64,000 nucleotides of DNA, taken from assembly GCA_963843795.1 (NCBI GenBank), contig CAWJLW010000004.1:1-64000 (forward strand), in the 5' to 3' direction. The notes beneath the pieces are model-generated. The model saw only the letters and a program-made list of their open reading frames with translations. It did not search any database and had not been told where the DNA came from. Positions 36,139 through 60,471 of the stretch are shown here, one piece after another (within the stretch, counting starts at the first letter, position 1; each line of letters starts with the position of its first letter). The DNA is from an uncultured bacterium (GTDB lineage: Bacteria > Armatimonadota > Abditibacteriia > Abditibacteriales > Abditibacteriaceae). The position numbers and the translations under genes are program-made.

Positions 36139-36335
36139 GATTCATTGCCCCCGAAAACGACAAACGGCACTGCAAGTACGAAAGTCGTTTGACTTGCAGC
36201 GGCGTAATGCCAATCAAATTTAAATTTGCAAACAGTTGTTTTGGGGTAGTGGTGTGAGCGTGCGCGCGTGTGTAAGTGGACGTGAGCGCGTGGGTGCGTG
36301 GGCGTGTGCGGAACTCGTTCCACGCGAAGAATATT

Positions 36336-37568: not shown

Positions 37569-37799
37569 AATTCTCCTGCAAGTACTGGGGCATGTTCTAC
37601 AACAGTTCAAAACAAAAATCTAAAGCAAAAATTCAAAACAACAGTTCAAAACAATAGTTCACAGGCGTGCCAGACGCGACCATCGCGTGCATCAGCGCGT
37701 ATTATTCCAGTGTCATCGCGACCTCGAACCAACCGTCAAAACTCCATTTAGCCATCAATCAGCATTTAGCCATTAATCAGCATTAGCCATCAATCAGCA

Positions 37800-38399
37800 T
37801 TAGCCATCAATCAGCGGCGCCCAGCGTTCTTCGCCAGGGAATTGCACGATATTGTAATGCTGCGCGAAGCCGCGCGCGTTCTCCCAACCGGGCAGACCAC
37901 GCAAAAACACGCGCTGACCGGGCACCAGTTCGTCCCACACACGCAAACCGCCCGCATCAGTGTGTCCGGCGCGAAACGGGTAGAGCAGCATATTGATAAT
38001 GTCGAGCGTGTCGTGGCTGTTTTTGATGTCACCGGCAGACAGCAGAGAATTATACGCCAAATAAATGATGGTGTCGCCGGTCATCTCGCTTTGCATCGGC
38101 GTGAAATCATTCATCCCAATCGAGCTGCTAATCACCAGCATCGGAAAGTCACCCGCGAGCTTTTCGGGCGCGACCTGGCACTCTTTGGGAATCGGCAAAC
38201 GCAACAGTTCGCGACTGCCATTTTTGCGGCGCACGCCCAGCGGGCTGGCGTTGCTATTGGCCAAATTCAGTGCACCCGGCAGCACATCCAGCATCAAGCG
38301 GCGCAGCGCGTCCCACGCGACCGAAATGCGACCGCCCGCAAACGGCGCGTAACTCAGCACTTCTTCGGGTGTGGGGTCAGGAGGCATCGACACAGTCAT
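37800..38399 (-). CDS. Tail completion/terminator-like protein
   Basis: Size, position and DFPMLVI motif. Confidence 0.55.
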   Translation of the reverse strand: MTVSMPPDPTPEEVLSYAPFAGGRISVAWDALRRLMLDVLPGALNLANSNASPLGVRRKNGSRELLRLPIPKECQVAPEKLAGDFPMLVISSSIGMNDFTPMQSEMTGDTIIYLAYNSLLSAGDIKNSHDTLDIINMLLYPFRAGHTDAGGLRVWDELVPGQRVFLRGLPGWENARGFAQHYNIVQFPGEERWAPLIDG

Positions 38400-39436
38400 C
38401 AGGCATCACCTCGCATATTCCACAGCGACACGTCCCACGCGCCCATCAGCGGTGTGCCCGCCAGCGGCACAGGAGGAACGTTACCCGTGACCTGGGCTTC
38501 GCTGAGCGCGCTTTGTTGCGCGCGCGTGCGGGCGCGGCGCACCGCCTGTGCCCAGGCCGCGTTGAGTTGGCTAGCGAACATCAGGGGCGCGGTCGCGAAC
38601 GGTCCGTGCGCCTGCATTTTGCGCGTGCCGCTGGCCAGAGCAAAGGGATACGAAAAACCGCTGCGCGACTTGGCCGTGTTGCGCAGTTGCAGCACCAGCT
38701 TATCGCCGCGCGTCACGAATTCCATCTGCCACGAATCATTCATCGTGCCCGACTGTCGGTTCACGACCGCCATTGTCGGCACGCTCCCGCGCACACCTTT
38801 CACTGAACCGATGCTTTTGCCTTCGAAGAAACGTGGCACGGCGCGCTTGACGGGCTGGCCACCCTTTCCACCCACCGCGGGCAGAGCGTCGAAGCCATAG
38901 GGATGGTTCATCTGGCGCAGATCGCGCGTTTGATACGGCCCGTTCGACATATCGAGAATGCGATTTAAAATCCTCTGTCCGACCAGGCGCATGCCGTCCC
39001 AATCCTCGGCGTGCATCGAAGCCATGTACTGGGTTTGGCGCTCCCACTCGATCAGCAAGTCACCCGTGCGCGCGTCCTGGATGATGTTCAATGACGGCGC
39101 ACCGATGACATCGAGGCGCAAATCGGAACTGAGGTCGGAACGAGTCGGCGAAGGCAATTGCGAAGGCAGTTGCAGCTCGGGCGTGCGGCGGGGTGTGGCG
39201 AAGGGTTGGGCGAGTGTGGTTTCGCCCAGACGCGGGTTGCGCGCCGACTGCGGCGTGTTTTTTACCGCGGGCAAATGCGACAGCAGAGCAAGGACCGGCT
39301 GCACGCGTGCCCGCGCCAAGCGCTCACTCGCAACCGTCGCGACCGCCTGATCCGCGTAGCCCCACAAGCTGGGCGCGCCCTCAGCGCTATTGTCAAACAT
39401 ATTCGCTCCCCTCAATTCCCACGTCATCACCGGCAA
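38399..39436 (-). CDS. Neck protein (HK97 gp10-like C-terminus)
   Basis: QSGTMNDSW..NTA..Y..ALASGTRKMQAHGPF resembles the gp10 GTxKMxxxPF motif. Confidence 0.65.
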   Translation of the reverse strand: MPVMTWELRGANMFDNSAEGAPSLWGYADQAVATVASERLARARVQPVLALLSHLPAVKNTPQSARNPRLGETTLAQPFATPRRTPELQLPSQLPSPTRSDLSSDLRLDVIGAPSLNIIQDARTGDLLIEWERQTQYMASMHAEDWDGMRLVGQRILNRILDMSNGPYQTRDLRQMNHPYGFDALPAVGGKGGQPVKRAVPRFFEGKSIGSVKGVRGSVPTMAVVNRQSGTMNDSWQMEFVTRGDKLVLQLRNTAKSRSGFSYPFALASGTRKMQAHGPFATAPLMFASQLNAAWAQAVRRARTRAQQSALSEAQVTGNVPPVPLAGTPLMGAWDVSLWNMRGDA

Positions 39437-40094
39437 AGGGTTGTTTCACGGCGAGCGCGCCCAGAAACGGTAAAAAACCGCCCGGTTGCGCGGGCATCGC
39501 TTCCTGTTGCAGTTCGCCCAGATACCAGTACGTCGGGTGATACATGTGCACCACGCTGTAGAATTCGCCTTCTGCGGGCGCATCACCTGCGGGCGCATCA
39601 CCACCGGGCGTCCAAATCAATTCATCACCCGAAAGCGTGCAGTCGGTACCAAGGGCAAAGGGCCGGTTGCCCTGCATCACGCTCAGGAGCGAAAAGGCAC
39701 CGCCGCGTTTCAAACTATCGCTTGCGCCCTCGCCACGCCGATAGGTGTCGGCATGGCGCGCGGCCATGAGTGGAAAATAAAATTTGTCGGCAAAACCCGG
39801 TAGGATCTCATCGGGCATGCCCGCCAGCGTCGCCGTGCCCGAAGGAATCAGGCCCAGTTCGGCATCGTTGATGCGCCGCGTGGTTTTGTCCAGATACACG
39901 CGCACTTCGGGCGCGAGCGCGCGATGGGTGTAAATCTGCCCCTGCGAACAGTTGCCACAGCCACGGCTGTTATCGCTATCGCCGCTCGCCTGACACGAAC
40001 ACGGCAACGCGGACCACCATTCAACCGGCTGACCATGACGGCGGATCAGCGCGCGAAAATGCTCGGGATGGAGGGAGGCGATAGCGCTTAACAT
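39393..40094 (-). CDS. Head closure/neck protein, Herelleviridae-like, with CxC..CxxC
   Basis: LIRRHGQPVEWWSALPCSC..GCGNCSQGQIY. Likely ATG at 40094. Confidence 0.72.
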   Translation of the reverse strand: MLSAIASLHPEHFRALIRRHGQPVEWWSALPCSCQASGDSDNSRGCGNCSQGQIYTHRALAPEVRVYLDKTTRRINDAELGLIPSGTATLAGMPDEILPGFADKFYFPLMAARHADTYRRGEGASDSLKRGGAFSLLSVMQGNRPFALGTDCTLSGDELIWTPGGDAPAGDAPAEGEFYSVVHMYHPTYWYLGELQQEAMPAQPGGFLPFLGALAVKQPFAGDDVGIEGSEYV

Positions 40095-40191
40095 AAGAAG
40101 AAACCCATTTGAGAAAAGGAAGGCAGAAAAGTGAACCGTGGTGCACTGCAAGTACTTTCCACTGCAAGTACTTGCAGCAGCGGTACGGTAT

Positions 40192-41028
40192 TTAGCTGGA
40201 GCAGATGAGCGGGCCGGAAAAGCCCGCCAGGTATTGGGTTTTGATGTCGGCGATGTCGTCGCTATAGCTCTTGGTTTCGGTCGCGAAGCGTCCCGCAACG
40301 AACGACTCGCTCAAGCCGAACATGCCGATCGAACCACCACCGGCACCGATGGCGCGCTCGCAGGCTTTGAGTACGGCGATACAAGCGCCCAGGCGCACGG
40401 CTTTGAGCAGTTGCGTCACGTCGTAATCGGGCGAGGCGTCGTAGGGATCTTCGGTTTCGGGATGGAAGTCATCAGGCAAAAAGCCCGCGGTGTAATCGAC
40501 GGTGACCAGAGAAGGGAGTGAGGCGCGATGGATCGGGCCGCCGGTCATCGGCAAGAGGATCATCGCGCCCGCGCCATAGGTCGCGCTGCCCACAATCGGA
40601 ATTACGTTCACGACACCCAGGCGCCCTTCAAAGCTGATCCAGTTGCGCGGATATTCGACGGCTTCGAACACATCCGGGCCTTGGCCGTAGCGAATCGCCA
40701 CGCGCTGCACCGACTGGATCGGGCGCCGATAGGTTTTGATGCGTCCCTGGCGCATCCAGTCATCGCGCACGAATGGATACGCGTCATCGAGGCGCGTGTA
40801 ATCGGTGCCGCGCACCAGACCCTCATCGAGCGGGCGCGATTTGATGACCTGCTGAAAGAGGTAGGTGTGGAGCGAATTTTCGATCTCTGATTGCGCTTCA
40901 CCGATGCGCTGCTCAATGATGCGCGTTTGCTGGTCGGGAGTGCCCAGAGCGGTGAGAAACATTTCCATGCCCTGACCGGACAGTTCATCGCGCACGGAAT
41001 CCACCGTGATGGCTAAAGAGCGGGGCAT
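40192..41028 (-). CDS. Head-tail adaptor, Herelleviridae-like
   Basis: IGEAQSEIE..YPF...DW..IKTYRRPIQSV..YPRNWI..VTVDYTAGF. Confidence 0.75.
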   Translation of the reverse strand: MPRSLAITVDSVRDELSGQGMEMFLTALGTPDQQTRIIEQRIGEAQSEIENSLHTYLFQQVIKSRPLDEGLVRGTDYTRLDDAYPFVRDDWMRQGRIKTYRRPIQSVQRVAIRYGQGPDVFEAVEYPRNWISFEGRLGVVNVIPIVGSATYGAGAMILLPMTGGPIHRASLPSLVTVDYTAGFLPDDFHPETEDPYDASPDYDVTQLLKAVRLGACIAVLKACERAIGAGGGSIGMFGLSESFVAGRFATETKSYSDDIADIKTQYLAGFSGPLICSS

Positions 41029-41121
41029 GATGCAAAAAACCTTTCAAACGGTCAAACGGTCAAACGGTCAAACGAAAAATCAAATGGAGAAAAGTAAAAA
41101 ATTGCGGGCAAAAGTGCACGA

Positions 41122-41454
41122 CTAGCCGCCCTGTTCGCGAATCTGGTCGCGGAGGTTACGCACCATGGCGTGAAATGCGAAGGGGCCAACGGTGACCACA
41201 TCGTTGCGAATATCGTTGAGCAGTTGGCCCAGCGAACTCGCCAGGAGACCCTCGGGAGTTTTCAGAACGAAAAACTTCTCGTTGCGGCGCGGGTCGCTTT
41301 GCTCGGCGTTGCGGCGGATCGCAATCAGCGGCCAGCCCAGCAAACGCAGCGTGGCTGCCATGGCAATCGCCGGTGTCGCATATTCGCGCGGCGCGAGCTC
41401 TTTTTCGTGCTCTTGGCTGGTTGGGGCAGAAGGGGAGAGTTGGATGTTGTCCAC
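41122..41454 (-). CDS. DUF5659-like small protein
   Basis: YATPAIAMAATLRLLGWPLIAIRR..DPRR..FFV. GTG at 41454 after AAGGA. Confidence 0.55.
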   Translation of the reverse strand: MDNIQLSPSAPTSQEHEKELAPREYATPAIAMAATLRLLGWPLIAIRRNAEQSDPRRNEKFFVLKTPEGLLASSLGQLLNDIRNDVVTVGPFAFHAMVRNLRDQIREQGG

Positions 41455-41589
41455 GAAAATAATTCCTTGCGGTGTAAATACAATTGAAAAATGCCACCCG
41501 AAAAGACAAAACGCCGCTGCAAGTACGAGAAGTCGTTTGACTTGCAGCGGCGTAATGCCCAACGGATTGTAAAGTGAAAAAACTAATGC

Positions 41590-42324
41590 CTATGCAGCCG
41601 CGTTGGCTTTGGCGGCGTTGGCTTTGGCCGCATTAGCGGCGCGCGTGCGAGCCGCCTTCTGGGCCGGTGTTAAAACATCGGTTTCGGTTTCTTCGATTTC
41701 ACCGGTTTCTTCGCTGTCGTCCGATGCATCATCGTCGGAGGTTTCATCATCGGTCACAGGGTTGTTGTCGCCAGAACCAGCACCAGAATCAGTTCCTGTA
41801 TCATCGACTTTCGGCGGTTCGACTTTCAGCGTTTCGACTTTCGGCGGTTCGAGCAGCTCGATTTCGATGTGCATCGGGACCTCAATGCCGGTTTTGGTAC
41901 CGAGCGAGCCTTGAAGCGCTTCACGCACGGCGTGGGCATTTTCCAGACTGACAACAGCCACGCCGTTTTCGTCGAAGCTGATCGGTGAGTTGTCGGGAGC
42001 CATCAGACGGTCATTGGCCAGAGTGGGAATGGTGAGGCGCGCCAGTTCACCGACCGCGCGCAGTTCGCCATCGACTTCAATCGCGCGGTTTTTCCAGGCT
42101 TCAATTTCTGCGCGCGCCTGATCACTGGCAGGAACAAAGATCGCTTCGTTGCGTTCGGTTTGGGCATTGTGCACGGAGATGGCGCACAGGGAAGCAGCGG
42201 TCGCGACATCGACTTGGGCACGTCCCTCATGGTCGAAGTGGATGCTAGTTTCGTTGACGGTGGTCGATTGACCAAAAAGTTCGGGGATCAGGGTGAAGAT
42301 AGCAAGTGTGGAGGAGTTCATCAC
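41590..42324 (-). CDS. Hypothetical head-associated protein with an acidic tail
   Basis: Internal duplication (IHFDHEGRAQV / ISFDENGVAVV). Follows the capsid genes. Confidence 0.65.
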   Translation of the reverse strand: MMNSSTLAIFTLIPELFGQSTTVNETSIHFDHEGRAQVDVATAASLCAISVHNAQTERNEAIFVPASDQARAEIEAWKNRAIEVDGELRAVGELARLTIPTLANDRLMAPDNSPISFDENGVAVVSLENAHAVREALQGSLGTKTGIEVPMHIEIELLEPPKVETLKVEPPKVDDTGTDSGAGSGDNNPVTDDETSDDDASDDSEETGEIEETETDVLTPAQKAARTRAANAAKANAAKANAAA

Positions 42325-42433
42325 GGATGTTCGGAGATAAGTTCGAAGAAATGTTCGGAGTTGTGAGAGATGTTCGGAGTTCAATTGAAGCCTGCAAGTA
42401 CTTACTTCAATATTTGCGGACTCCAAACGCTTC

Positions 42434-42763
42434 TCAGGTCAAATCGCGGTACTGGATCACGAGCGTGCCAGCGGTCGCGGTGCCGCCGGTGTTGTTGATG
42501 GTGTCGGCTGCCGACACACTAAATTCGCCCGTCAGATTCTGGACGGTTGTGCCATTGTGATGGATGACCGAAACGATCTCATCACCGACCGAGATACCGG
42601 TCACCGTGAAATTGCCCGCCGCTCCCCCGGCCACGACAGCCGGAACCACATTGGTGCGCTTGCCAAGGGCATTGAGCAAAAGGCCCAGACGATTGTCCTT
42701 GTAGAGGCCAGGAGCCGCGTGATTGAGTGCATTAAGCACTGGGTTTACAAACGTTTTGAACAT
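42434..42763 (-). CDS. Small capsid decoration-like protein
   Basis: Directly after the MCP. TVTGISVGDEIVSV..VSAADTINNTGGTATAGTLVIQY. Confidence 0.65.
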   Translation of the reverse strand: MFKTFVNPVLNALNHAAPGLYKDNRLGLLLNALGKRTNVVPAVVAGGAAGNFTVTGISVGDEIVSVIHHNGTTVQNLTGEFSVSAADTINNTGGTATAGTLVIQYRDLT

Positions 42764-42959
42764 ATCAATCCTTCTTTGATTTTTAATCCAATCAGCAACA
42801 AAAAACACCACTGCCCACGGTCTAAAACCATGAGACAGTGGTGTTTTCGATGGATTGTCGGTCGCTACTACTGGCCGCCTAATTTATCGCTTCCGCTTTG
42901 GCTAACAAGCCAATGGCTAAAAGCCGATGACTAAAAGCCGATGACTAAAAGCCGATGGC

Positions 42960-44516
42960 TTACGCACCGAAGCCGTTGAGCGGTCCGATGTTGCGAATGA
43001 CCACGTTGTGCGTGCGGGTCAAGCCTTGAGGGGTCCAGCCGCAGATGTAGGCCGCTTCGTTGGCCAGCACGTCTTGGGGCAGAATGACTTTAGCGATCGG
43101 ATGCAACATACGGATCATCCAGCTCGCGCCACCGACACCGTTTGGACGGTTGCTCATCGCAAACGCGGACGAACAACCGGGCACGAATTCGCCCTTGTCC
43201 TCAAAGGTAACCGTCGCGCCATTGGCCACGCCGTTGGCCGGAATGCGCGTCAGGTAACGACGCGTACCACCGACCGCCGCGCGCCAGATTTCAAAGTAAT
43301 CGACCGAGTAATCACCGGCAGTGTCCGCGCCATTGGTGATCGTCAAAACTGCTTTCTGGCTGCCGTTGACCGTGACCGAAGCCGCAATCGGGCGCACATC
43401 CGAACGACCGTTGGTGCCGACCGCACTCACGGAGTAGGTGTAGACACCAGCGGGCAGTTTGCCGCCCAGCGGGTTGGTCACACTGCCCGCAGAACTGTTG
43501 GCACCCGTGACGCTGGTCGGTTTGACCGGCGCTTCGGGATCGGCTCCAAAGGTGTCATCGGGGAAGATCGGGTCGAGCATCAAGTCCATGTGGAACTTGC
43601 TTTCGCCGACTTTGCCGCCCATCGCCTTGACCATCTGGCCCTCGGGAATCAGTCCCAGGGTCAAACGCTGACCGGTTTCGGAACGCACGATGGATTCCAT
43701 CATGATTTCCAAGTCGGCCTCGGTCTGGTTGCCATGCCAGAAGTCCGTCCACACCGCACCCTTGGCGCGCAAGGTTTTCGTGATGATCGGCAAGGTTTCG
43801 GGCGTGATCGGCTCGCCCTTCAAGTCGATGATCGTCACGGTGCGATAATCGCTGCCATCATGGGCCAGAACGGTTTGCTGAATCAAACCATTCGGCTCGT
43901 AATGGTTCACGGAAAAGTTTCCGTGCCAACCGAGATAATTATTGTCTAAAATCAGCGATTCCATCGCTGCCATCGAGTTGACCTGATCTGCGCCGCCGAC
44001 CACGGGATCGTTGTTGAACGACAGCGTGCGCTGCGAGTTCAGGGTGGTGAAGGTCTGCCAGCGCTGACCCGTCCAGCGCACCGGCGTGACTTCACGCTCC
44101 ATTTTCGGGTCGCGCGAACGCAGACCGCCGCTTTTGATGTTGGTGCGCAGATAACCGCCGCCACGGTGACGACCGTAGGATTGCATCTGCGTCATTTCGA
44201 CCACGTCGCTGTCGCAGGGAACCTGCTTCAAGAAGTTCCATAGTGGAGCGTGATCTTTGCTGTTGAGTTCGGCGTTGGCCAGGGTCTGGGTCAAATCCTG
44301 AATTTTGAGCGACTCGCCGCCGACTGTGCCCGCAATCGCGATGTTGCTGTCGCTGGTCAAGGCTTTGCTCAAACCGCTGCCGTTGCTGGCCGCTGTGCCC
44401 ATCGCATTGACCACATCAGTGTTGACCATGGCGTCGGTTACTTGTTCGGCGCCGTAACGCACCGCGAGCTGATCGCGATGGTAGTTCTGAAAATCTTCTA
44501 CGCTTAAAATACTCAC
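42960..44516 (-). CDS. Major capsid protein, SPO1/Herelleviridae-like with an FN3/Ig insertion
   Basis: LSKALTS..GGESLKIQDL..LWNFLKQ..SDVVEM..SYG, EPNGLI, IIDLKG, YTYSVSAV..GRS, YFEIWR and VTFEDKGEFVPG. GTG at 44516 after GGAG. Confidence 0.9.
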   Translation of the reverse strand: MSILSVEDFQNYHRDQLAVRYGAEQVTDAMVNTDVVNAMGTAASNGSGLSKALTSDSNIAIAGTVGGESLKIQDLTQTLANAELNSKDHAPLWNFLKQVPCDSDVVEMTQMQSYGRHRGGGYLRTNIKSGGLRSRDPKMEREVTPVRWTGQRWQTFTTLNSQRTLSFNNDPVVGGADQVNSMAAMESLILDNNYLGWHGNFSVNHYEPNGLIQQTVLAHDGSDYRTVTIIDLKGEPITPETLPIITKTLRAKGAVWTDFWHGNQTEADLEIMMESIVRSETGQRLTLGLIPEGQMVKAMGGKVGESKFHMDLMLDPIFPDDTFGADPEAPVKPTSVTGANSSAGSVTNPLGGKLPAGVYTYSVSAVGTNGRSDVRPIAASVTVNGSQKAVLTITNGADTAGDYSVDYFEIWRAAVGGTRRYLTRIPANGVANGATVTFEDKGEFVPGCSSAFAMSNRPNGVGGASWMIRMLHPIAKVILPQDVLANEAAYICGWTPQGLTRTHNVVIRNIGPLNGFGA

Positions 44517-44740
44517 TGCATTCTCCACAAACCGGAATTGAGGAGTCGGGTTAATTTGGAGTAGGGTGAGCAAACACGGTACAAACGACTGGTTACAACC
44601 AATGACGAACAACCAATGACGATTAAACGGTGCGACCAGGGCCATCTGTGGCCTCGTTCAAACCGACCGAAGCGGATTTGAAACGCAATTTTCGAAAGCA
44701 GCTAAGCTGAAGCAGCTAAGCTGAAACCGCTAAGCCGTAG

Positions 44741-45796
44741 CTACTGAGCCGAGGTTGCGGGCGCTTTGGAGTAATTGCCCGCCAGCTCTTTATCCACGAC
44801 ATCATTGACGCGCTGCATTTCCTGCGGACTGAGAAGACTGAAACGCTCCAGATATTCGCGGCCCACACCGCTTTGCGCGTCGTGGCCCGCTTCAATGTGG
44901 GTGAGCAAGGATTTGATGATCTGGTCGCGGCTGCGCCCGTTGCTGTGGCTGCCATCGCCCGCGATTGTGACGTCATCCATCGCGCCTTGAGCGCCCGGGG
45001 CGATATTGTGATGGAGAACGCCGCCCACAACCGGAGCGCGCCCGTTCATCGTGCCCAGCGGGCGCATACCCAGCGATTCCAATGATTTGGAAATTTCGCC
45101 CTGCACCTGATTCTGATTTGCCATCTGGTTTTCGATGTTGTCCAGGCGCGCCTCCAACGCTTCGTTCTGCTTCATCAAGGCTTGATTTTGTTTCAGTACG
45201 GCGTCGTTCTGGCCCATCGACTTGGACAGCATTTTGGCATTGCGCTCATTGTGGCGATTGGCAATCGCCAGCTCTTCGGCGATGCCTTCGAGCACGGGAG
45301 CGGCATCGATTGCTTCACCCGCGAATTCGCCCGCATCGTCCGCAGACCGATCACCCACATTGGCTTTGCTGAGTCCGGGCTTGACACCGGTTTCACCAGG
45401 CGCAGGAATTTCTGCGCCTTCGTCATCGTCGTCCAAATCGTCGTCATCGCCCAAGGCGCTTTCGTCGTCCAGAGCGCTTTCGTCGAGTGGCGCGTCATCA
45501 TCATCATGCAATGGCGCATCATCGTCGGTGGCGTCATCGTCGGTCGCGTCGGGATCGGCGGGCAAGCCTTTGGACAATTGGCGGCGCAGTTCGGCGTTTT
45601 CGGATTCGAGCTGGCTCACGGCGTCGCGGGTGATTGCGCCCAGACTTTTGACCAGATCGCGCGCATCATCATTGTCGATGGTATCGGCCTGGTCGATCAG
45701 GGGCTGCACACGCGACTGAAAATCGGCGGCTTCGGGGCTAACAGATTGGGTGTTGCCCTGGGGCTTGGAACGGAAAAAATCTAACAAACCAGACAT
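44741..45796 (-). CDS. Scaffold-like acidic coiled-coil protein
   Basis: Between protease and MCP. Asp-rich tract with repeated LSKS/LSKA/IIKS motifs. Confidence 0.75.
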   Translation of the reverse strand: MSGLLDFFRSKPQGNTQSVSPEAADFQSRVQPLIDQADTIDNDDARDLVKSLGAITRDAVSQLESENAELRRQLSKGLPADPDATDDDATDDDAPLHDDDDAPLDESALDDESALGDDDDLDDDDEGAEIPAPGETGVKPGLSKANVGDRSADDAGEFAGEAIDAAPVLEGIAEELAIANRHNERNAKMLSKSMGQNDAVLKQNQALMKQNEALEARLDNIENQMANQNQVQGEISKSLESLGMRPLGTMNGRAPVVGGVLHHNIAPGAQGAMDDVTIAGDGSHSNGRSRDQIIKSLLTHIEAGHDAQSGVGREYLERFSLLSPQEMQRVNDVVDKELAGNYSKAPATSAQ

Positions 45797-45822
45797 AATA
45801 AAAACCTTGTAAGAAACTTGTC

Positions 45823-46749
45823 TCAGATGGATGGAGTTAAAACTGCCGCGAACACATCGCGTGTCAATTCACCCAGCGATTTGCACAGCTCGCCACAATC
45901 GCCGCAGTATTTGCGACGGGCGCTCACAGTCCCACCGCATTTGAGGCAACGGCGCGCGGGCTTTTTATCGCTGTCGCCTTCGCTAGTGCCATTGGAAACG
46001 CCCATCAAATCCTGAATTTTGAGCGCTTCTCCGCTGCTGGATCCGGGCGTTGCGATCCCGCCCTCACTGGTCAGTGCTTTGATGATGGCGGCATCGCCGC
46101 CCATGACCAGCAGTTGCGGCACGCGCTCGTTCCACTGGACGGCTTCGACTTCGATGCCTGCGACTTCGGCCTCATTGATGTGATCGAGCGCGTGCAGGCT
46201 TTTGGCGATAAAGCACGGCGAGTTGCCATTGACCGGCTGTTCGGCGATGGCGATTTTGTAGATTTGGCCGGGAATCGCGACCGGCACTTTTTTCCCGTTG
46301 CGCATCTCGAAGCCGCCACCGACTTGCGGCGCGCGAATCGAAAAGCCCAAGCGCTCGCCCACATCGGCGTAATGATGCAAGGTTTTGAGGTCGTTAGGCG
46401 CGAGATCGGGCTTGGATCCCAAGGGATTGATGTAGCCCGTCACTTCGATGGCGGGGCCTTCGATTTGATAATCCGGGTATTTGCTGCGCGCTTCGGCTTG
46501 AGAGAGAAAACGCGCCGATTCGGGGCGTCCGACCATCGGCCCGCCCCGGTCCGAGTTGTGGTTGTAGTCAAAAATCGCGCGACCCTGATTGATAAAGCGG
46601 ATGCAACTGGGATTCGAGGAGGCTTTGACGATTTCGTCTTGCTCGTCCTGGCTACAATCGGTCGCCAGGCCCGTCACTTTGAGGCGACCATCGCCCTGCG
46701 ACTCGGCTTTAACAATCGGCATCCAGAGATGAGGAGCGTTTTGAGACAT
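45823..46749 (-). CDS. Prohead protease (Herelleviridae-like) with a C-terminal zinc ribbon
   Basis: KVTGLAT..DEQDEIV, FDYNH, MVGRP, RLGFSI, IAIAEQPVN, then CLKC..CGDC. Confidence 0.83.
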   Translation of the reverse strand: MSQNAPHLWMPIVKAESQGDGRLKVTGLATDCSQDEQDEIVKASSNPSCIRFINQGRAIFDYNHNSDRGGPMVGRPESARFLSQAEARSKYPDYQIEGPAIEVTGYINPLGSKPDLAPNDLKTLHHYADVGERLGFSIRAPQVGGGFEMRNGKKVPVAIPGQIYKIAIAEQPVNGNSPCFIAKSLHALDHINEAEVAGIEVEAVQWNERVPQLLVMGGDAAIIKALTSEGGIATPGSSSGEALKIQDLMGVSNGTSEGDSDKKPARRCLKCGGTVSARRKYCGDCGELCKSLGELTRDVFAAVLTPSI

Positions 46750-46910
46750 GGAAAATAAAAACGAAAACTGAAGCCAAAAAATCGGCTGGACAAAACAAAA
46801 AAACCGCTGCAAGTACTGCAGCGGCGAATGCCAGATCAAATTTAGTGAGAGTGCCAATGCTTAATCGGCCTCACCCGAACATCACAGATTCTACAAGATT
46901 GTTTGGTGAG

Positions 46911-46944: not shown

Positions 46945-47076
46945 AGGTGTTGCGGCGATAAAAGTGTTGGAACTGGTCAAGCGCAGTGCTACAATCGACC
47001 CAATAACAGGCACAAAAAACGCCAAAGGACATTCTTTGGTGACACAGTCTCTTGTTCGGCTGCTGTTGTCCAACTT

Positions 47077-47613
47077 TCAGGTTGGTTTTGTTTGCGTAAA
47101 TAACTGTTCGCGAAAAACGATAGATAGGCCAACGAACGCAACTGTCAGAACGCTGAAAACAATAGCGGCGTAGAGACCTAATTGCCTGTTTCTTGTCTCC
47201 CATTTCTTGCGCCCTTCAAGCGTGCTATAAACTGCCTTATCATCCCGTAAACCGTGAACAAAAATTGTTGGTATAGGATTCAATGGTGGAAGAAATGGGT
47301 GTTGAATTTGGTTTGTTTCGGCAGTGATGTCAATTCTTTTGCCTTTTCTGACGTTGGCGAAAAATGCATCCTCGTTAAATTCTTCTTTATACCCATCTAT
47401 CGCAACGCGAAACCGCGCTGGATTTTCTTTGATATGAAATTCCATAAAAGGAGATTCATCAGAACCCATGCCTTTAGCAGATATGATTGTGCCTGTAAAT
47501 GTGGTGAAATCTGCTTCCTTCAGCGGAGGATTCATAAAATACCAACGCCATGTTACGACCGTAACGGCAGCCATCAAGAATAAAAATATCAAAGGCGTTA
47601 ATTTTCTCGTCAT
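47077..47613 (-). CDS. Cassette 6: hypothetical membrane protein (TM helices at both ends)
   Basis: Bounded by GTTCGGC (47669-47663) and GCCGAAC (47060-47054). Confidence 0.8.
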   Translation of the reverse strand: MTRKLTPLIFLFLMAAVTVVTWRWYFMNPPLKEADFTTFTGTIISAKGMGSDESPFMEFHIKENPARFRVAIDGYKEEFNEDAFFANVRKGKRIDITAETNQIQHPFLPPLNPIPTIFVHGLRDDKAVYSTLEGRKKWETRNRQLGLYAAIVFSVLTVAFVGLSIVFREQLFTQTKPT

Positions 47614-47689
47614 ACTTGTAATTTACAAAAATGTCGATTCCGAGACAACACTGCGCGCAGCCGCCGAACGCCAAGCTTGTATGTTAGAT

Positions 47690-47860
47690 ATTGGGAGTCA
47701 GTGATGCACACGTCAAGCTGAGATTTCGAATCTGTGGGTGAGATGAGCACCTGACTCCCTTCTTGCCTTGCCCCAAAGACCGGACAGTATCATAAGCCAG
47801 GACGCACCACGTTCATGAGCTTGCATTCACAAGGCTGGTTCTCTGGCGAGGCGTTTTTCC
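47690..47860 (+). ncRNA. Bridge RNA (target-binding and donor-binding loops)
   Basis: LTG CGTCAAGCT 47711-47719, RTG GGGTGAG 47736-47742, LDG ACAGTATC 47784-47791, RDG ACAAG 47829-47833. Stems GGGAGTCAG/CTGACTCCC and AGATT/AATCT. Ends approximate. Confidence 0.88.
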
Positions 47861-47883
47861 GTTTCTAGAAGGAGGAGGACACG

Positions 47884-48909
47884 ATGGTTTCAGAAGTAGA
47901 AGTCACACAAGCAACCGAAGTCTCAGGCATTTTAGGGATTGATGTCAGTAAGAAGACAGTGGATGCGGCTTTGATGCTGGCTAATGAGCCAACTCGTAAG
48001 CCGCGCCACAAAGTCTTTGCCAATACACCCGCAGGCCACCAACAGCTTTTGCAGTGGCTGACTCACAATGGCGCGCTTCGGGTTCACGCCTGTCTCGAAT
48101 CGACGGGCACTTATGGCCAGGCTGTGGCGCAAACACTCCATCACGCCGATCACAACGTCAGCATCGTCAATCCCTCATTGATTCGGGCTTTTGGTCAAAG
48201 TCAACTCTCCCGCACCAAGACCGATAAAGCCGACTCTCAGCTCATCGCGCGTTTTTGCCAGATGAATAATCCGCCATTGTGGACTCCTCCGTCTCCCGAA
48301 GTCGCTGCCTTACAAGGATTAGTGCGGCGTCTGGAGAGCTTGGACGAGATGCGCGTGATGGAAGAGAACCGTCTGGAATCTCTGGCAGCGAGCCTGTGGT
48401 GCGAGGAAGTGGAAGCCTCTTTGCAAGAACACATCGCTTATCTCCACGCTCAAATCGAGAAGACACGTCAACAGATCAAAGACCATATCGATCAGAACCC
48501 GACCCTCAAAAGTCAGCGCGATCTGCTCCTCAGCGTTCCCGGCATCGGCGAGGCCACAGCGTCTTTGCTGCTGGCCGAAGTCGAGATGTCCCAGTTCCAA
48601 AGCGCTCGTCAAATCGCGGCTTTCGCCGGGCTGGTGCCGCGTATCCGTCAGTCGGGAACTTCGGTGCGCGGACATTCGCACTTATGCAAAGCGGGTTCAT
48701 CGCGTCTGCGCAAAAGCCTCTACTTTCCCGCACTCACGGCCTTACGCTTCAATCCTCTGATTCGAGCTTTGGGATTGCGACTGGCGGAGAAGGGCAAATC
48801 CAAGATGTTGATTGTGGGTGCGGCGATGCGAAAACTGCTGCACATCGCTTTCGGTGTTCTTAAGAGTGGCCAGCCTTTTGATCCCAATTATCTGGCTCAA
48901 ATCGACTGA
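47884..48909 (+). CDS. IS110 DEDD recombinase/transposase
   Basis: LGIDVSK, CLESTG, KTDKADS (RuvC DEDD), SVPGIG, AFAGLVP..RQSG, RLRKSLY, GAAMRKLL. Confidence 0.97.
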   Translation: MVSEVEVTQATEVSGILGIDVSKKTVDAALMLANEPTRKPRHKVFANTPAGHQQLLQWLTHNGALRVHACLESTGTYGQAVAQTLHHADHNVSIVNPSLIRAFGQSQLSRTKTDKADSQLIARFCQMNNPPLWTPPSPEVAALQGLVRRLESLDEMRVMEENRLESLAASLWCEEVEASLQEHIAYLHAQIEKTRQQIKDHIDQNPTLKSQRDLLLSVPGIGEATASLLLAEVEMSQFQSARQIAAFAGLVPRIRQSGTSVRGHSHLCKAGSSRLRKSLYFPALTALRFNPLIRALGLRLAEKGKSKMLIVGAAMRKLLHIAFGVLKSGQPFDPNYLAQID

Positions 48910-49055
48910 AAACTACTTAAAGACCTTGACGAGCAACACAGTATCTCACCCGCCGCCGGAAGCGGAATGAGTGAAGTGAGGAGGAACGACGAACGAAACG
49001 AATGGAGCTGTAGAAGGTCGGATGCAGCGCCTTGTTAGCCCGCTGTTTGGCAGTT

Positions 49056-49301
49056 TCAAGTTGTGTCTTTAACGCCCGATACGACCAGCACTGTTCCGAG
49101 TAGCCACATCACCGCAACGTAAATCCATACCAACCAAGGCAGGCCGAAGAAGTGACTGACTACTTGTGGAAAATTATAGAATTGGTCTTTGCCTTTCAAT
49201 GATTCTACCGACAAGCCCATTAAAATGGCGTGTTGAGCAACAGGCAACAGGGTGCCAAGAGACCACAATAACACTCCAAACCCAATCTTCTTCATATTCA
49301 T
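49056..49301 (-). CDS. Cassette 5: small membrane protein
   Basis: Two hydrophobic segments. Cassette bounded by GTTAGCC and GGCTAAC. Confidence 0.7.
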   Translation of the reverse strand: MNMKKIGFGVLLWSLGTLLPVAQHAILMGLSVESLKGKDQFYNFPQVVSHFFGLPWLVWIYVAVMWLLGTVLVVSGVKDTT

Positions 49302-49380: not shown

Positions 49381-49465
49381 GGCTAACGCTAAGTTCAGCC
49401 GCCGCTGAAAGCGCAGAGAGGAACGAACGGAGCTGTAAGCGGTCTGCTGCAACGCCTTGTTGTGT
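49381..49465 (-). other. attC site
   Basis: ACACAAC-AAGGCGTTGCAGCAGACC...GCGGCTGAACTTAGC-GTTAGCC on the minus strand. Confidence 0.9.
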
Positions 49466-50189: not shown

Positions 50190-50292
50190 ACACAACGCTT
50201 AGCTCACCCGCCGCCGGAAGCGCAGCGAGTGTAGCGAAGAATGAGCGAAACGAACGGAGCTGTAGGCGGTCGGGTGCAGCGCCTTGTTCTGC
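50190..50292 (-). other. attC site
   Basis: GCAGAAC-AAGGCGCTGCACCCGACC...GGCGGGTGAGCTAAGC-GTTGTGT. Confidence 0.92.
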
Positions 50293-50771: not shown

Positions 50772-50857
50772 GCAGAACGACCAAGCTCACCCGCCGCCGG
50801 AAGCGAAGTGAGGAACGAACGGAGCTGTAGGCGGTCGGGTGCAGCGCCTTGTTGGGC
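50772..50857 (-). other. attC site
   Basis: GCCCAAC-AAGGCGCTGCACCCGACC...GGCGGGTGAGCTTGGTC-GTTCTGC. Confidence 0.92.
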
Positions 50858-53267: not shown

Positions 53268-56200
53268 TCACCTCTTGAAGCGCAGGAACAAGCGCTGGGT
53301 TTTGCCCAGCATGCGCATCGCCTTACTCAGTCCCGATCCCTCGGCTCCCAGTACGTCAACGACCGGACGAGAAGCGGTCAGCTTTTCGATGACCGCTTCG
53401 GCTTTATCTTGCGGGATGAAGTAGCGATTTTTGAATTCGATGCGCTCGCGGAAGGCGCCCGCAGTTTCGAGTTCGGCGTGATGCGAGAAATCCGGCCCGC
53501 TGATTTCGATGCGGCTTTCACCGCTCACGCGCCGCTTGCGAATCGTCCAGCCGTTGGAGAGCTTGACCATCGAGCCATCAAGCACATGATCTACAACGTT
53601 GGCGGGCGAATACTGCTTTTGCGCGCCTTGGGCCGTGATACCGAAGTTTTTCATCACGGCATCCAAACGTTTGGGCGGGATGACCATGCCGATCATGCGC
53701 TGGCCGTCATCGGTTTGCACGCGACGCACCTGCAAGGGCGCATCACCCGATTTGATACGATCCCAGACCGGCAGAATGGTTCCCGTGATGAAGTGCATGG
53801 TTTCCTGGCGGGTTTCGGGTTCGGCGGCGTGCTGTTCCTGCCACGCGTCGCGCGCTTCGTCGCGACTCAGCGGCACCCAGCGATCCGGGTCATCCAGTTG
53901 TGATTTATCGACACGCTGCGCATTGGTCACGCCCTTCAAGGGATGCTGGGCGCGGATAAAGCCGGTATCGGTATCGGTTGTGTGAACGAGATCGCCCACC
54001 GAATAAACCTTGCCGCTGCGCTTATTTTTGACGAACGCGCCACCGTGCAATCCTGGGAACGCGTTGCGCTCATTGGGCTGAGTCAACTCCAATTTGAGGT
54101 AGCGCGTTTCGGCACCGCTGCGCGAATCGGTATGGATCACCTGATCGTGCGCGGCAATGGTCGAAAGGGCATCGACATTTTCCATGCCCTGATCCAGCGT
54201 GCCCGCTTCGATTTTGGCGTCCACCACGCGATCCAAGCGTTCGCTAAAAGCATCGAACACCTTGTTTTGGGTGTCGAGTGTCAGCGACAACAAGCGATTC
54301 AAGAACTGCGTAATCGGTGGCGTGCTTTCCAGCAGGTTGCCTTCGCTATCGCGCAATTTGAGGCCCATTTCCTGTTCCAGCACATCGGGTGACAGATCGG
54401 GGATGCGCCCGCCGACCACATCGCGATAAAAGCCGCTGAGCGCGGTTTTGGCTTCTTCGCTTTCCAGGTTGTCGCGCGCCTTGAAAAAGCCCTGGCTGCC
54501 GGTCTGGCGGCTGCCTTTGGTCAAAGCGCCCAGCTGATCGAGACGGCGTGCAATGGAGGAGATAAAGCGCGCTTCGCCCACCACGTCTGAAGTCGCGAGC
54601 GCGTATTCGGGCGGCTGTTTTTGGTTGTTGCGATGGGTGCGCCCGAAGCCTTGAATCGCTTGCGCGGCCTGCCAGCCCGGTTGCACCAGGACGTGATAGC
54701 GCTTTTGCTGGTTACGGGCTTTGCGGTCGGCGTGGTAGCTGCGACCGGTGCCGCCCGCGTTGGAAAACACCAGCACGCGGCGTTTGCCGTCCTGGAACTC
54801 ATTGGCTTCGCTGATGCCGTGCGACTTGCCCCGCCGCTGCAAAATGCGTTTGGTTTGTCCGTCCTCATCGGTATGGGCGACCACGCGCTGGGTGCGTCCG
54901 GTCACTTCGGCGACGTTTTCGTGCCCGAAGTGATTGAGAATCATTTCCAAAGGCCCATCGGGCACGGCGATTCCGCCCAGCTTGTCGAGTAGGGCATCGC
55001 GCATCGCGACCGCTTCTTTGTTGATGATCGGGTTACCTTTGGAGTCAACGGCGGGACGCGAAAGCAGGTTGCCGCTGTCGTCGGTGTATTGCTCCTGTTG
55101 GGTGACGGGAAACGAGCGCTCGATCATCTGCATCAAAATATCGCGCGGCGTGAGATCCAACTCTTCGTAATCGACCGCTTCTTCGTTATCGGCGGCTTCG
55201 TTGCGCCGCTTGTCCAGGGCGCGGTTCTGGGAAGCTTCGTTGGTGTTGACGAGCTGCATCACAACTGACTTGTTATCGTCTAGCTGGCGCGAAGCGTTGG
55301 CGAGCACGGTGGGCATTTTCATCGAAGTGATGACCTGGTTAAAGAAGCGTTGGTGCGCGCCCCAGAACGCCGAGCGCATCGCGCTTTTGGCGTTTTTGTT
55401 CAGCACTTTGGTGTCGCCGGTTTCGGGATCTTCGGCGGCACCGCCGACGACTTTAAGCGCTTCGTCCATGTTTTGCAACGCTTCTTGCCAGCCCAAAGCG
55501 AGCGTGTCGTAGATCTCGCGTTGGTTGGGCGTCAGGGTGTGTTCGATTTTGGCGTAGTCGATGCCTTTCCACGAGATCGAACGTGAGACATACAGGCCCA
55601 TCGCTTTGAGGTCGCGGGCGACCAGCTCCATCGCGGCGACACCTCCGGCGGTCACTTGCTCGATGAAATCATTCTTGTTGGCAAAAGCAGTTCCCGGCCC
55701 CCACAGGCCCAGGCGCTCGGCATAACCCAAGTTGGCGACTTCGGTCGCACCGGTCGCGCTCAGATAAACGATGCGGGCGTTAGGCAAACGGCGCTGAAGC
55801 TCCATGCCGACCAGAGCTTGGGCACTGGGTGTGGTGTTGCCGCGCTTGCCTTTGGTCGTGCTGTTATTGGCCATCGCGTGACTTTCATCCATCGCGATCA
55901 CGCCATCGTAATCATCGCCGCACCAGTCGATGATTTGTTGAACGCGGGTCTTGGCTTTCTCGCCATCTTTGGGGCTGCGTTCTTTGGAACGTAGCGTGGC
56001 ATACGATACAAAGCCAACGCCCTGGGGCGCGCCGATGGAATCTGTGAGCTTGGTTTTGGAGATGTCGAACAATTGATCGCCCATATCGCCCACGTCATTG
56101 AGGTCGCGTTTGGCGTCATTGAACAGAGCGGGCTTTTCGCTGATCCAGAGCGCTTTTTTGCGGCCCTGCATCCAGTTATCTTGAATGATGCCCGCGACCT

Positions 56201-59200
56201 GCCTGCCCTTGCCCATGCCGGTATTGTCGCCGCAAAACCAGCCGCGTCGCAGCTCTTCGGGTGGAGAGGTGCCGTATTCTTTTTCGTATTCGCGGCGCTC
56301 GTCATCGGTATAGGCGACCGGAATCATATCCTGGTGAGCGTTGCCCGCCAGGACGACCGATTCCATCGCAATCGCCGACAAACGCCCCTCGGTCGCATTG
56401 CCCTGGGGCTGATAGTATTGGGGCGTGAGAGCGGGACGATACGTGGGTTTAATCGGGTCAACGCTCGCCATCGCTGCTGACTCTTGTACTTCGACCGGCG
56501 GCATCGTGGTTCCCTCAATGACGACACGCGGCACATAGGAGTCGTAAACCGCATCGGTTAAAGCGCCCCGGGGCTGAACTTCGGCGTGACCGATTTCTAA
56601 GCGCTCAGCTTTGGATGTCAATTGCTCGGGTGTCGATGCTTTGGGTGTCAATTGCTCGGATGTCGATGCTTTGGATGCCGATTGCTCGGATGACGATTGA
56701 TCAATGGATGCTTGAGGAGCCGCAGCGCCTGGCGAGGCACTTACTCCGTCAGGCTTTGTCCCGCCGCTTGCACTTCCTGATCCCCGTCGTGATCCGTCAA
56801 CGCTTGGGTCCGATCTTCCACCCAGTCCAGCATCAGGAGCGCCGCTTCGAGAGGTTGGGCTTCCCGTTTGATCAGGTCGCACCATTCCTGGTCGCTGCGT
56901 TTCTGAAGCGCTTGGCCCACTGTCGGAAAGCGCAGCGCTTCCCGCAGTTCTGGCACCGGCTTCTGGAGCAGGGCTTGGGGCAGCGGATCCGGCAGCGTCT
57001 CCGCGTTGTTCTTCACGGCTTGTAGAGCTTCTTTGACGTTCATTGCGTATGGTCTCCAAAAGTGGGATCAACTCTTCGACCTGTTCGACACGACCGGTCA
57101 GCGTGGTTGGTGCGTTTTGGGCATCAGGTTTGGTGCCCAAAACGGGCTTAGTGCCCAGAGCGGGCTTGGTGCCCAGAGCGGGCTTGTCGATCACCAGAAT
57201 TTGATTATCCCAAGTTGTACCGTATTTTGCATATTCGGCACCATTGACCTGCACATTGGCGCGCACATGAAAGCGTTCGCCCATGCTTTTCCACCAGTGG
57301 CGAAAAGAAGGTCGGTCGTGCGCCATGCCGTTGCCGACAATGGCGACCAGACGCCCACCGGGCTGCAAGCGCGCCATCGCTTGCTCGATGTGTTTGGTGG
57401 CGTTGGAGGTATCGCGCACGCCCTGCATGCGGCCCGCCGTGGAAGAAAAAGGCGGATTCATCACGACGACGGTCGGCGCGATCTCAGCGGGCAAAATATT
57501 GTGCAGTTGTTCGGCATTTTCGCCGAAGGTGTGTGTGAACAGTCCGCTTTGATTGAGCAGGGCCAGACGGCGCTCACTCAGTTCGTTCACGGTCGTTTGG
57601 GCACCGGCATTGACGGCGAAGGCGGCCAGGCCACCGACACCCGCCGAAGGTTCGAGGACATGATCGCGGTGGGACAAGTTGGCGACCCAGTTCGCGACAT
57701 AGGCCAGGGGCGGTACAGTCGAGAATTGTTGGAATTCGTCCATCTCCGCTGTGCGCCTGGATTGGGTCGGAATCAGTTTGATGAGTTCCTTGAGGCGTTT
57801 AACCGCGCGTTCGGCGTGCTCGGCGCCGCCAATCGGGTCGAAGACTGATTGGGTCGCGATCATGCGATTGATCGCCATCTCGACCGCATCATAAGCATCT
57901 TTGGGCGTGTAATCGCCGTTGGCTTGCGACCCGCCAAAAGCTTTGTCGGCCTGGCGGAATAAGTCGTTACCATTAAGCGCGACACCTTGGCCCATCTGCT
58001 CTTGAACCCACTTGGCCAGATCTTCGCTCTTGCGCGCCAGGGGCGTGGACGCAGCGGCCTGTGCCGCGATACGCTCGTGATTGGCCGCACCCTGTGCGGT
58101 AAACGATGACAATTTGAGCAGGTCTTGCGTTGAGACTTCAGAAGCCGATGTTTGTGAAGATGTTTGTGAAGCGGATGCGGTATCTTCTGGCGATGCACCG
58201 CGCACACGGTGACCGTTTTCGTAGTGGTGCGCGTCCTCGACATTGATTTTGTCGCGCCCGTCATCGACTGAAGGGGCGCGCGAAGCGTTTGCGGATGACT
58301 CGACAGGGGCTTTGGCGCGCGCGTATAAATCTTCGATGGTTTTGCCGTTGCGCGCTTGGGTCAAGATGTTGACGAAATCTTCATTGGAAAAGTCATCGAC
58401 GCGATCAAACACCGCGCTCGTGAGCAGCTTGTCCACGCCCAGCGCGAAATTCAGGGCGCTATTGTTCTGCGCCATCTGTTGGATTTCGGGAGTCCGGGCC
58501 AGTTTTTCGACGATGCTTTCCAGACCTTTTTTCGTCGCATTGCCATCGCGCCCGCCCTCATGCCAGCTCTGGGCGCGAAGATTCTTGCTCCACTGACTGG
58601 CGAAGCTGGCGATATCGGCCTGACGGCGGCGGTTGATGGATTTGACGCCGGTGCCGTCATCGGTGAGCGTCATTGTCGATTGATGACCGCCGTAAGCGCC
58701 TTGGGTGATTTGGGTGGGCGCCCAGGTTTTGCCGTCAGCTCCGCCCGCCGTGAAAAAGACGATTTCAGGATCGGCGATCATATCACCGTTCTGGGTGTAA
58801 TAATGCGCGACCGAGACTTGGTTTGGCCCGACGTTTTCCACGACCAGCGGCATGTAATTGTCTTGCTCCAAACGCAGGTGCGCTTCGGGTTGCGACAAAT
58901 CAACGCCATGTTTGGCCGCGATTTTTTCTATCGTGGCCTGCATGGTTTTCGAGGTTTTACCCACATTCGAAGGTTGTTTGGGTTCTTTGGGTCGCTCAAC
59001 TTCGGGTGGCTCAACTTTGGGCGTAGCTTTAGCTTTATTTTCTGTGGTTTGGCCGACCAGATTCTTGGCTTCTTGAACAGCGCGCTCTTCGGTCGGATAA
59101 ATCGTGATCTTGTTGAGAGTTTCGTCGGCTTGGGTGTCGCGCAAGACCACCGAAAAGCCGCCTTTTTGATGCGGTAGCACTTGGGATTCCATGCCGCCGT

Positions 59201-60017: not shown

Positions 60018-60054
60018 GATGGCAAAACAACAACCGAAGTTTCAGGTGAGAAAT

Positions 60055-60396
60055 TCAAAGGTTGGACGCGATAATGCGTTGACGGCGCGCGAGGCGAAAA
60101 TTCTGGTGGCAGCGCGCCAAGTTCTGGCGCGCCTTCAAGTACTGGCGACTGGCATCGGCTTTGGCTTGCGGATCGGTCGCACCTTTTACCGCGCGACTGA
60201 GAGCTGGCCACTGCTCATTCAGGTGCTTGATCATGCCCGCCGCATCGGTTTCGAGTTGGCGCGCGCGCGCTTCGGTTTGCGTGCGCACGGTCGAGCTGCG
60301 TTCCAACTGCGCGCGAATCGCCGTGTGAACGGTTTGCGCGGCTTCCATTGGTGTGGTTTGTGAGTCTTGTGACTTGGTATCGGGAGTATTTTTCAT
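60055..60396 (-). CDS. Hypothetical helical protein
   Basis: Fills the gap between two large minus-strand genes. Confidence 0.6.
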   Translation of the reverse strand: MKNTPDTKSQDSQTTPMEAAQTVHTAIRAQLERSSTVRTQTEARARQLETDAAGMIKHLNEQWPALSRAVKGATDPQAKADASRQYLKARQNLARCHQNFRLARRQRIIASNL

Positions 60397-60471
60397 AAAC
60401 CAAAAACAAACGACAAACGCCGCTGCAAGTACTTGCAGCGGCGTAATGCCAGATCAGATTTAAAAGCGGTT

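Follow-up and report, generated by a model that had tools for sequence, protein, structure and literature searches.

The stretch of DNA analysed here (the window) comprises 64,000 nucleotides of a contig from an uncultured bacterium of the Abditibacteriaceae, whose genome is referred to below as G000. It contains an insertion sequence, IS-A, that lies antisense to the genes of a cassette array and is present as one full copy in the genome. Its non-coding ends are unequal, with 206 nt on the left and 35 nt on the right, which is the long-left and short-right layout described for the IS110 group (Durrant et al., 2024; PMC11208160). An earlier note on this DNA had placed the element between two CT cores. 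A CT core is indeed present at both junctions, and every motif named in the note was found at its position. The element consists of the following features.

47678..48946, plus strand: IS-A, an IS110-group insertion sequence of the IS621 type, 1269 bp from core to core
47669-47675 and 47676-47677, plus strand: left target CGCCAAG and left CT core, located as motifs
47680..47685, plus strand: putative -10 hexamer TATGTT of a circle-junction promoter, a consensus match whose activity would be as in IS621
47884..48909, plus strand: IS110 recombinase of 341 aa, an open frame with a ribosome-binding site upstream
48910..48946, plus strand: short right end, with a -35 hexamer TTGACG (48926-48931), AAC (48935-48937) and ACAGTAT (48938-48944), followed by the right CT core
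48938-48951, plus strand: right junction ACAGTAT-CT-CACCC, located as a motif

The right-end AAC reads as GTT on the cassette strand, and ACAGTAT is the left donor. Joining the two ends would create a promoter consensus (TTGACG, 17 nt, TATGTT). It would also create the donor ACAGTAT-CT-TGTAT, which is the IS621 donor in the Durrant 2024 supplement; the earlier note had called the donor IS621-type, and the supplement entry is identical. The terminal inverted repeat is only 4 bp long (AACA/TGTT, around the donor). No promoter or terminator consensus was found inside the integrated element, and an Rfam scan of the 64-kb window gave 0 matches.

The recombinase carries the DEDD (PF01548) and Tnp (PF02371) domains, and its residues D20, E72, D114, D117 and S257 align with the IS621 motifs. 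It has only two solved relatives, ISCro4 (PDB 9t56, E 7.7e-80) and IS621 (PDB 8wt6, E 8.3e-76). In the plasmid database PLSDB there are 83 matching records, none of them at 60% identity or above. Contigs from four sequencing runs cover only parts of the locus; one of 257 nt is the exact left junction, and another joins 47670 to 48945 via a different spacer and is probably a related empty attC. Of the sequencing runs listed, none with RNA holds the locus and all shares are below 0.2, and the contigs are given no weight here. Judged by sequence, IS-A looks intact, and it is an IS621-type IS110 element in every feature of that type that can be checked in this way.

A predicted bridge RNA in the left end

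The long left end has the elements of a bridge RNA.

47689..47850, plus strand: predicted bridge RNA, with a target-binding hairpin at about 47693-47759 and then a donor-binding hairpin
47711..47719, plus strand: left target guide and core, CGTCAAG-CT (CGTCAAGCT at 47711), with six Watson-Crick pairs and one U.G wobble against the left target
47736..47744, plus strand: right target guide GGGTG, core AG and handshake AT, which matches donor positions 6-7
47784..47791, plus strand: left donor guide ACAGTATC, identical to the IS621 template
47825..47835, plus strand: right donor guide, discontinuous (AT-TC-ACAAG plus handshake GC), following the IS621 template

These guides agree with what the earlier note had claimed. 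The left guide at 47711 was said to match the left target at eight of nine positions, and the single mismatch turns out to be the U.G wobble. GGGTGAG at 47736 and the second-loop donor guides (at 47784, and ACAAG at 47829) are likewise as described.

How well does the left end fold? Taken alone, it folds as two hairpins. This fold leaves free the donor guides and a portion of the right target guide, but draws most of the left target guide as paired. The energy of this single-sequence fold is unremarkable (z -1.39), and 14 of 200 shuffles fold as well. An alignment of 15 sequences is more telling, since the IS621 bridge-RNA architecture proposed in the note is kept across all of them. Compensatory, two-sided changes are seen at 18 of the 31 predicted pairs, and the target guides form an internal loop. 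By this model the left end is a two-loop bridge RNA with its guides in internal loops; the single-sequence fold is weak on its own.

One further detail concerns the handshake dinucleotides. The reported rule is that the target-loop handshake matches the donor (PMC13626964), and the target loop of 13 of the 15 aligned left ends carries AT, matching the donor in this way. In IS621 the donor-loop handshake in turn matches the target. In contrast, IS-A has no such match, as its donor-loop handshake is GC and its target positions 6-7 are AG.

The occupied attC and the cassette array

IS-A interrupts an attC site of an array whose features are as follows.

47077..47613, minus strand: last cassette gene, 178 aa, without a Pfam family
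47663..47677, minus strand: start of the last cassette, with the attC R' box (AAC at 47667-47669 on the plus strand, GTT on the cassette strand), a 6-nt spacer, the left target and the left CT core
48931..49040, minus strand: hybrid attC, in which the IS-A right end (R'-like triplet plus 7-nt spacer) is joined to the original L', variable stem, L'' and R'' (46.8 bits, E 6.5e-11)
49056..49301, minus strand: cassette gene of 81 aa, owner of the invaded attC, without a Pfam family
49382..49465, minus strand: empty attC, 54.4 bits
49584..49669, minus strand: empty attC, 65.5 bits
50190..50292, minus strand: empty attC, 94.8 bits; its left target at 50203 has two mismatches and one wobble against the guide
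50772..50857, minus strand: empty attC, 85.9 bits; its left target at 50786 has one mismatch and two wobbles against the guide

The attC model was built from nine intact sites at other loci, eight of them near intI genes, with the structure drawn by hand. In the window it finds the five array sites (46.8-94.8 bits) and three weak matches of at most 16 bits; there are nine matches in the genome as a whole, and 24 of 27 family genomes have matches. Like the sites beside intI, the array sites have inverted boxes in the order R''-L''-L'-R', two extrahelical bases and matching cassette ends. The cassette start at 47663..47677 matches the R'' end of that same cassette at about 47052-47066. The insertion point of IS-A is the R'/L' spacer at the 3' (crossover) end of the site, and the element is antisense to it.

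The earlier note held that removal of IS-A restores an intact attC. Excision in silico does bring back all four boxes. However, the L-box stem of the restored site has three mispairs, and the most stable DNA fold of this site differs from the attC hairpin. Single-strand DNA folding gives that hairpin for three of seven sites; the restored and the hybrid site are not among these, and the folds are given no weight as support. The hybrid is a full-length match to the attC model (R1) with three stem mispairs, and the mispairs of the occupied site may mean that the insertion is old. Two more sites had been named as possible targets, at about 50201 and 50784, where AGCTCACCC is located. Both are attC sites, but both match the guide imperfectly and both are empty. 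Spacer length also differs between sites. Among 44 surveyed attC the spacer is 7 nt in 35, the commonest length, and 6 nt in nine, and it is these nine 6-nt spacers that the guide of IS-A fits.

No intI was found above the cut-off in the genome, an assembly that is 92% complete; the best TIGR02249 score is 85.7 bits against a cut-off of 265. The locus is therefore not a complete integron as judged by intI in the locus or elsewhere in this 92%-complete assembly. An intI is found in 13 of 26 family genomes. Clusters of attC without an integrase are called CALIN, and the window array resembles one in its five attC, its short genes without a Pfam family, their placement on one strand and the lack of an intI above the cut-off. 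On both sides of the array, at 35152-46857 and 53268-63975, there are phage-like structural genes, including a tail tube gene (PF18906), and a protein of 2249 aa that has a Strawberry-notch helicase domain (PF13871). The 100-kb contig resembles a cassette-bearing prophage or phage-plasmid. The same contig has a second attC cluster (G000:C4:78400-82600, with model matches at 79933, 81866 and 82089), near which lies a tyrosine-recombinase gene (83102-83629) that scores far below the intI cut-off. Elsewhere in the genome there are a solitary attC-like site on the main contig (C6:1239074-1239178) and a third, distant IS110 gene of 28% identity (G000:C6:72189-73211).

Relatives of IS-A and their targets

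A protein search of 401 phylum genomes gave matches at 27 places in 18 genomes. Flanks were inspected for these and for four further loci. A protein scan of genome contigs gave four loci, two of which duplicate earlier ones. The closest matches in named genome records, an Abditibacteriales bacterium (78%) and an Abditibacteriaceae bacterium (66%), are both the same loci as family-genome matches. Among elements with at least 59.5% protein identity, seven of eight, IS-A included, sit at the same attC base. One of these (L016) has only its right junction visible, and another locus (L014) has a degenerate R' box. The exception is L025, a frameshifted element (68% over part of the protein) that lies outside attC. 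The earlier note had named copies in unrelated targets as one finding that would overturn its reading; for the closest relatives this is not the case, as six of seven are in attC and guides track flanks. It had also predicted flanks of the form CGYCAAG-CT-CACCC. The attC position is as predicted, but the consensus is broader because the guides come in two registers, for 6-nt and for 7-nt spacers.

Copies at 55-58% identity behave differently. All eight (L019, L032 (G084), L020, L033, L035, L037, L039 (G125), L023 (G096)) are in other, mostly palindromic, repeats; they have the same donor and guides for REP-like palindromes.

A pattern scan of metagenomes, biased by its pattern to attC-like right flanks, listed 121 matches, or 112 after nine duplicates were dropped. 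Among the matches listed, 46 of 112 have an IS right end together with an attC, and 35 of 112 have an IS end without an attC call, mostly from a distant clade of 31-41% identity at another repeat, with some beside damaged attC. The remainder are too short (8/112), have neither (20/112) or are attC-like without a called IS (3/112). These attC calls, like those of the tree below, are approximate counts from a regex caller that does not detect the site in the window and gives a call on 122 of 1960 shuffled sequences. The distant IS110 clade (L067, L089, L096, L119 and similar metagenome loci, 31-41% identical where the gene is present) has the same left donor arm and targets a non-attC repeat beginning CTCACCCGG. 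In viral contigs there were two pattern matches, both without recombinase or attC.

A quick, midpoint-rooted tree of 49 rows places all 24 attC-called rows in one group of 36 rows (SH-aLRT 85, not starred), and five non-attC rows are nested in a branch of that group with support of 97. As far as such a tree goes, it suggests that attC targeting is old in the IS-A group and was lost by retargeting in some members. This bears on the proposal of the earlier note that the element was naturally retargeted to attC. The targeting of attC stands, but it belongs to a lineage instead of a single event, as the REP-like targeters nest within the attC group. The lineage comprises at least 120 proteins at 63% identity or more, a count in which genomic context plays no part.

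Guides and flanks vary together

If the guides choose the target, they should change with it. The comparison covered 35 complete elements, from which three rows below 40% identity were dropped. Left ends were aligned and guides were read by column, blind to the flanks. This gave 20 distinct guide pairs, with two misaligned pairs kept in. Left guides agree with their flanks at 115 of 140 bases, against a shuffled mean of 49.2, and right guides at 64 of 80, against 36.0. In neither case do any of 20,000 shuffles reach the observed value, although related elements are not independent and these counts are not clean probabilities. Restricted to the 13 attC-type pairs, the left guide still tracks (79/91 versus 42.9; 0/20,000). 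The right guide in these pairs does not track beyond shuffling (43/52 versus 39.8; 1158/20,000), because the right flank hardly varies. Many of the left-guide mismatches are U.G or G.T wobbles, which IS621 also tolerates.

What decides the target?

The best explanation of these data is that IS-A is very probably an IS621-type bridge-RNA recombinase element with integron attC as its landing pad. Its anatomy, the identity of its donor, the flanks of its relatives, the covariation of guides with flanks and the conserved fold all point this way. By analogy with IS621, the element would leave as a circle whose joined ends build the donor and a sigma-70 promoter, and this junction promoter would drive both the left-end RNA and the recombinase. 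The first loop of the RNA would pair with the R'/L' spacer, the core and the start of L', and the second with the donor. A recombinase tetramer, as in IS621 structures, would then exchange strands at the shared CT. Wobble pairs with U and G in the guide would accommodate the C/T and A/G variation among attC spacers, and the element would insert antisense, within a few bases of where the integrase crosses over. IS-A would be one of a broad attC-targeting lineage, some members of which have been retargeted to REP-like repeats.

Perhaps the folded single-stranded attC hairpin, or its readout by protein, decides the target, with only a lesser role for the guide match. Every insertion is antisense, attC is known to fold as a single strand, and many non-attC targets of relatives are palindromic repeats too. 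An exact copy of the occupied 11-base target outside attC model matches (G000:C10:122441-122455, the 11-mer at G000:C10:122443, preceded by AA) is empty, and insertion at a half match has been reported for IS621 (2026 preprint, bioRxiv 10.64898/2026.08.31.748434). What does not fit is that guides shift in step with flanks both inside and outside attC, and that recombinases of 55-58% identity are found at sites other than attC, the sequence of which is encoded in their guides. Hairpin readout is therefore improbable. It has also been considered that IS-A is simply a member of the known IS1111-attC group, which likewise targets attC and inserts antisense (PMC3001079). Its anatomy refutes this almost entirely. 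The non-coding end of 206 nt is upstream and that of 35 nt downstream, the terminal inverted repeat is 4 bp, the nearest solved relatives are IS621 and ISCro4, the bottom-strand guide comes first, and the other end of attC is struck. What remains preferred is a guide-directed element of the IS621 type.

Comparison with known systems

An IS1111-attC group with ISPa21, ISPst6, ISKpn4 and ISPa25 as members reportedly goes back to Tetu and Holmes in 2008 and Post and Hall in 2009. The earlier note had stated that attC targeting is described mainly for IS1111-group elements, and two papers agree (PMC11187229; PMC3001079). The first describes seekRNAs of the IS1111 family, and a third paper cites work on attC targeting by that family (PMC12444791). 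Like IS-A, these elements are RNA-guided, site-specific and inserted antisense in the attC of cassette arrays. However, their RNA is downstream of the gene and they have long sub-terminal inverted repeats, whereas the RNA of IS-A is upstream. In ISPa21 and ISPst6 the insertion, likewise antisense, is close to the 5' end of attC (PMC3001079), whereas IS-A is near the 3' crossover end. Of the group's characters, IS-A has the antisense orientation; it lacks the downstream RNA, the sub-terminal inverted repeats of 7-17 bp and the 5'-end insertion. Group IIC-attC introns are an unrelated RNA-based mobile element that has converged on the attC bottom strand, but they are reverse-splicing ribozymes with a reverse transcriptase and lie near the 5' end (PMC3001079).

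The closest known systems are IS621 and ISCro4 (PMC11208160; PDB 8wt6, 9t56; PMC13626964). These share with IS-A the DEDD and Tnp recombinase, the long left end with a two-loop bridge RNA, the CT core, an identical 14-bp donor, the junction promoter, a target-loop handshake matching the donor and the tolerance of wobble. The difference is in the target, a REP repeat for IS621 and the attC R'/L' spacer for IS-A, with Abditibacteriaceae as host. No description of IS110-group elements in attC was found in the titles and abstract openings of the literature searched, and two forms of the IS-A target have no match in the parts of the Durrant supplements consulted. As far as these sources go, what is new is the IS621-type branch and the crossover end of attC as a target; the mechanism itself is known. 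Supplementary Data 2 of PMC11208160 does contain unlabelled targets resembling the R'' end of attC, so targeting of the kind considered next may already be present, unnamed, in public data.

IS-B, an IS621-type element at the opposite end of attC

The genome has another IS621-type element, IS-B, outside the window at about G000:C4 80015-81314 (L002, L186). It is frameshifted and 40-50% identical, and it has inserted into an attC at GCAGCGC-CT-TGTT, in the L''/R'' spacer, which is at the 5' end of the site. Its donor is ACAGTCT-CT-CATA and its left end contains matching guides. Close relatives (L028, L185) occur at the same base in two other genomes, one of them on an intI-bearing contig. IS-B shares the 5' end of attC with the IS1111-attC group, yet it is IS621-type. 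A remnant of such an element is present in the window.

47002..47056, plus strand: right-end stump of IS-B, 55 bp, 87.5% identical over 56 columns to the IS-B right end (G000:C4:81266-81321)

The attC of the last cassette has the stump at its R'' end and is otherwise lost, as is the remainder of the element; the window array ends here. To judge from these sites, IS-A and IS-B use two different guides to target opposite ends of a single attC family, on one and the same strand. At a metagenome locus (L129) with a relative of IS-A, the R'' end of the attC is cut by sequence resembling the left end of another IS, and this is a possible second case of both ends being struck.

The hybrid site and a donor-arm scar

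The right end of IS-A puts AAC seven bases before the core, so the upstream cassette keeps a four-box site after insertion. One further site resembles such a hybrid. At G000:C4:79923-80014 (L002:1501-1592) the attC spacer is the left donor arm of IS-A, but the IS-A body is missing. Identity to the IS-A right end stops exactly at AAC/GTT. Beyond the AAC is a true cassette start that matches its own R'' end and belongs to a PemK-type toxin-antitoxin cassette. The scarred attC is also interrupted at its other end by IS-B. In the cassette (G000:C4:79318-79860, in L002), a short gene upstream of the PemK/MazF-type toxin gene (PF02452) probably encodes the antitoxin. The attC of this cassette is also destroyed, at the R'' end beside a short duplicated motif.

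What if the integrase still uses the hybrid site? An IntI crossover at G/TT of a hybrid attC would produce such a scar, and the site would stay usable after invasion. This fits the exact halt at AAC/GTT with a true cassette start beyond. The 7-nt spacer is the commonest natural length (35/44 sites), the hybrid scores as a full attC (46.8 bits), and intI is present in half of the family genomes (13/26). However, the scar is a single case, one of nine pattern matches in 31 class genomes; none was seen among the listed metagenome matches with upstream DNA and no further one in 401 genomes. The reciprocal product, an IS with a natural spacer, has one match in the 401 genomes, which lacks an upstream recombinase and is put down to chance. 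The G000 genome has no intI above the cut-off. Moreover, IS621 target entries in REP repeats bear the same donor-arm scar without an integron, and AAC precedes the donor in non-attC relatives too, so it is no special adaptation; the idea that it evolved as attC mimicry was rejected on the same ground. A crossover by IntI is a possible origin, though a minority view. Alternatively, the scar is a by-product of the bridge recombinase or of host repair, with the IS body lost between short matches left of both 7-nt arms; such a loss would leave left donor, core and right target. Eight of the ten places of ACAGTATCTAC in the part of Durrant Supplementary Data 2 consulted are IS621-type, REP-like target entries in which the left donor replaces the left target, and single-strand, donor-only excision of IS621 is reported in the 2026 preprint (bioRxiv 10.64898/2026.08.31.748434). 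Against this, the Durrant entries are sequences taken from around element boundaries that were themselves predicted, so pipeline artefacts may be among them, and the by-product is not described in the relevant passages of the literature. On balance it is about an even call that the scar arose in this way, and a recombinase or repair origin is rated above IntI.

Four other scar candidates were discarded. L240 and L238 lack both an upstream recombinase and a downstream attC, L239 is a distant IS whose site is not an attC, and L077 keeps part of the -35 region, which makes it a truncation and not a crossover scar.

A wider scenario can be built on the IntI reading. Two IS621-type lineages would share out attC, and the one at the crossover end would be compatible with recombination. 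Its right end would supply a new GTT and a 7-nt spacer, IntI would use the hybrid, and the upstream cassette would stay mobile with an 8-bp signature. The element would travel as a passenger at the head of the following cassette, and the scar at G000:C4:79923 would be a fossil IntI crossover. As a whole this is doubtful.

Significance

Programmable elements are expected to be retargeted to repeated sites, which limits the surprise. Nevertheless, IS-A adds an independent invader of integron attC beside the IS1111-attC elements and the group IIC introns. Since the structure and rules of the IS621 clade are known, each claim made for IS-A is directly testable at the bench. Its lineage is also a natural series of guides, in which the donor is fixed and a degenerate, two-register target is followed via wobble, and it bears on the tolerance of bridge RNAs. 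Two RNA-guided elements are found at opposite ends of attC in one genome, and their costs differ. The 5'-end element leaves stumps that end the array, whereas the 3'-end element rebuilds an attC in sequence. If the doubtful scenario of continued IntI use were true, an RNA-guided parasite would invade the site of another recombinase and yet leave that site working.
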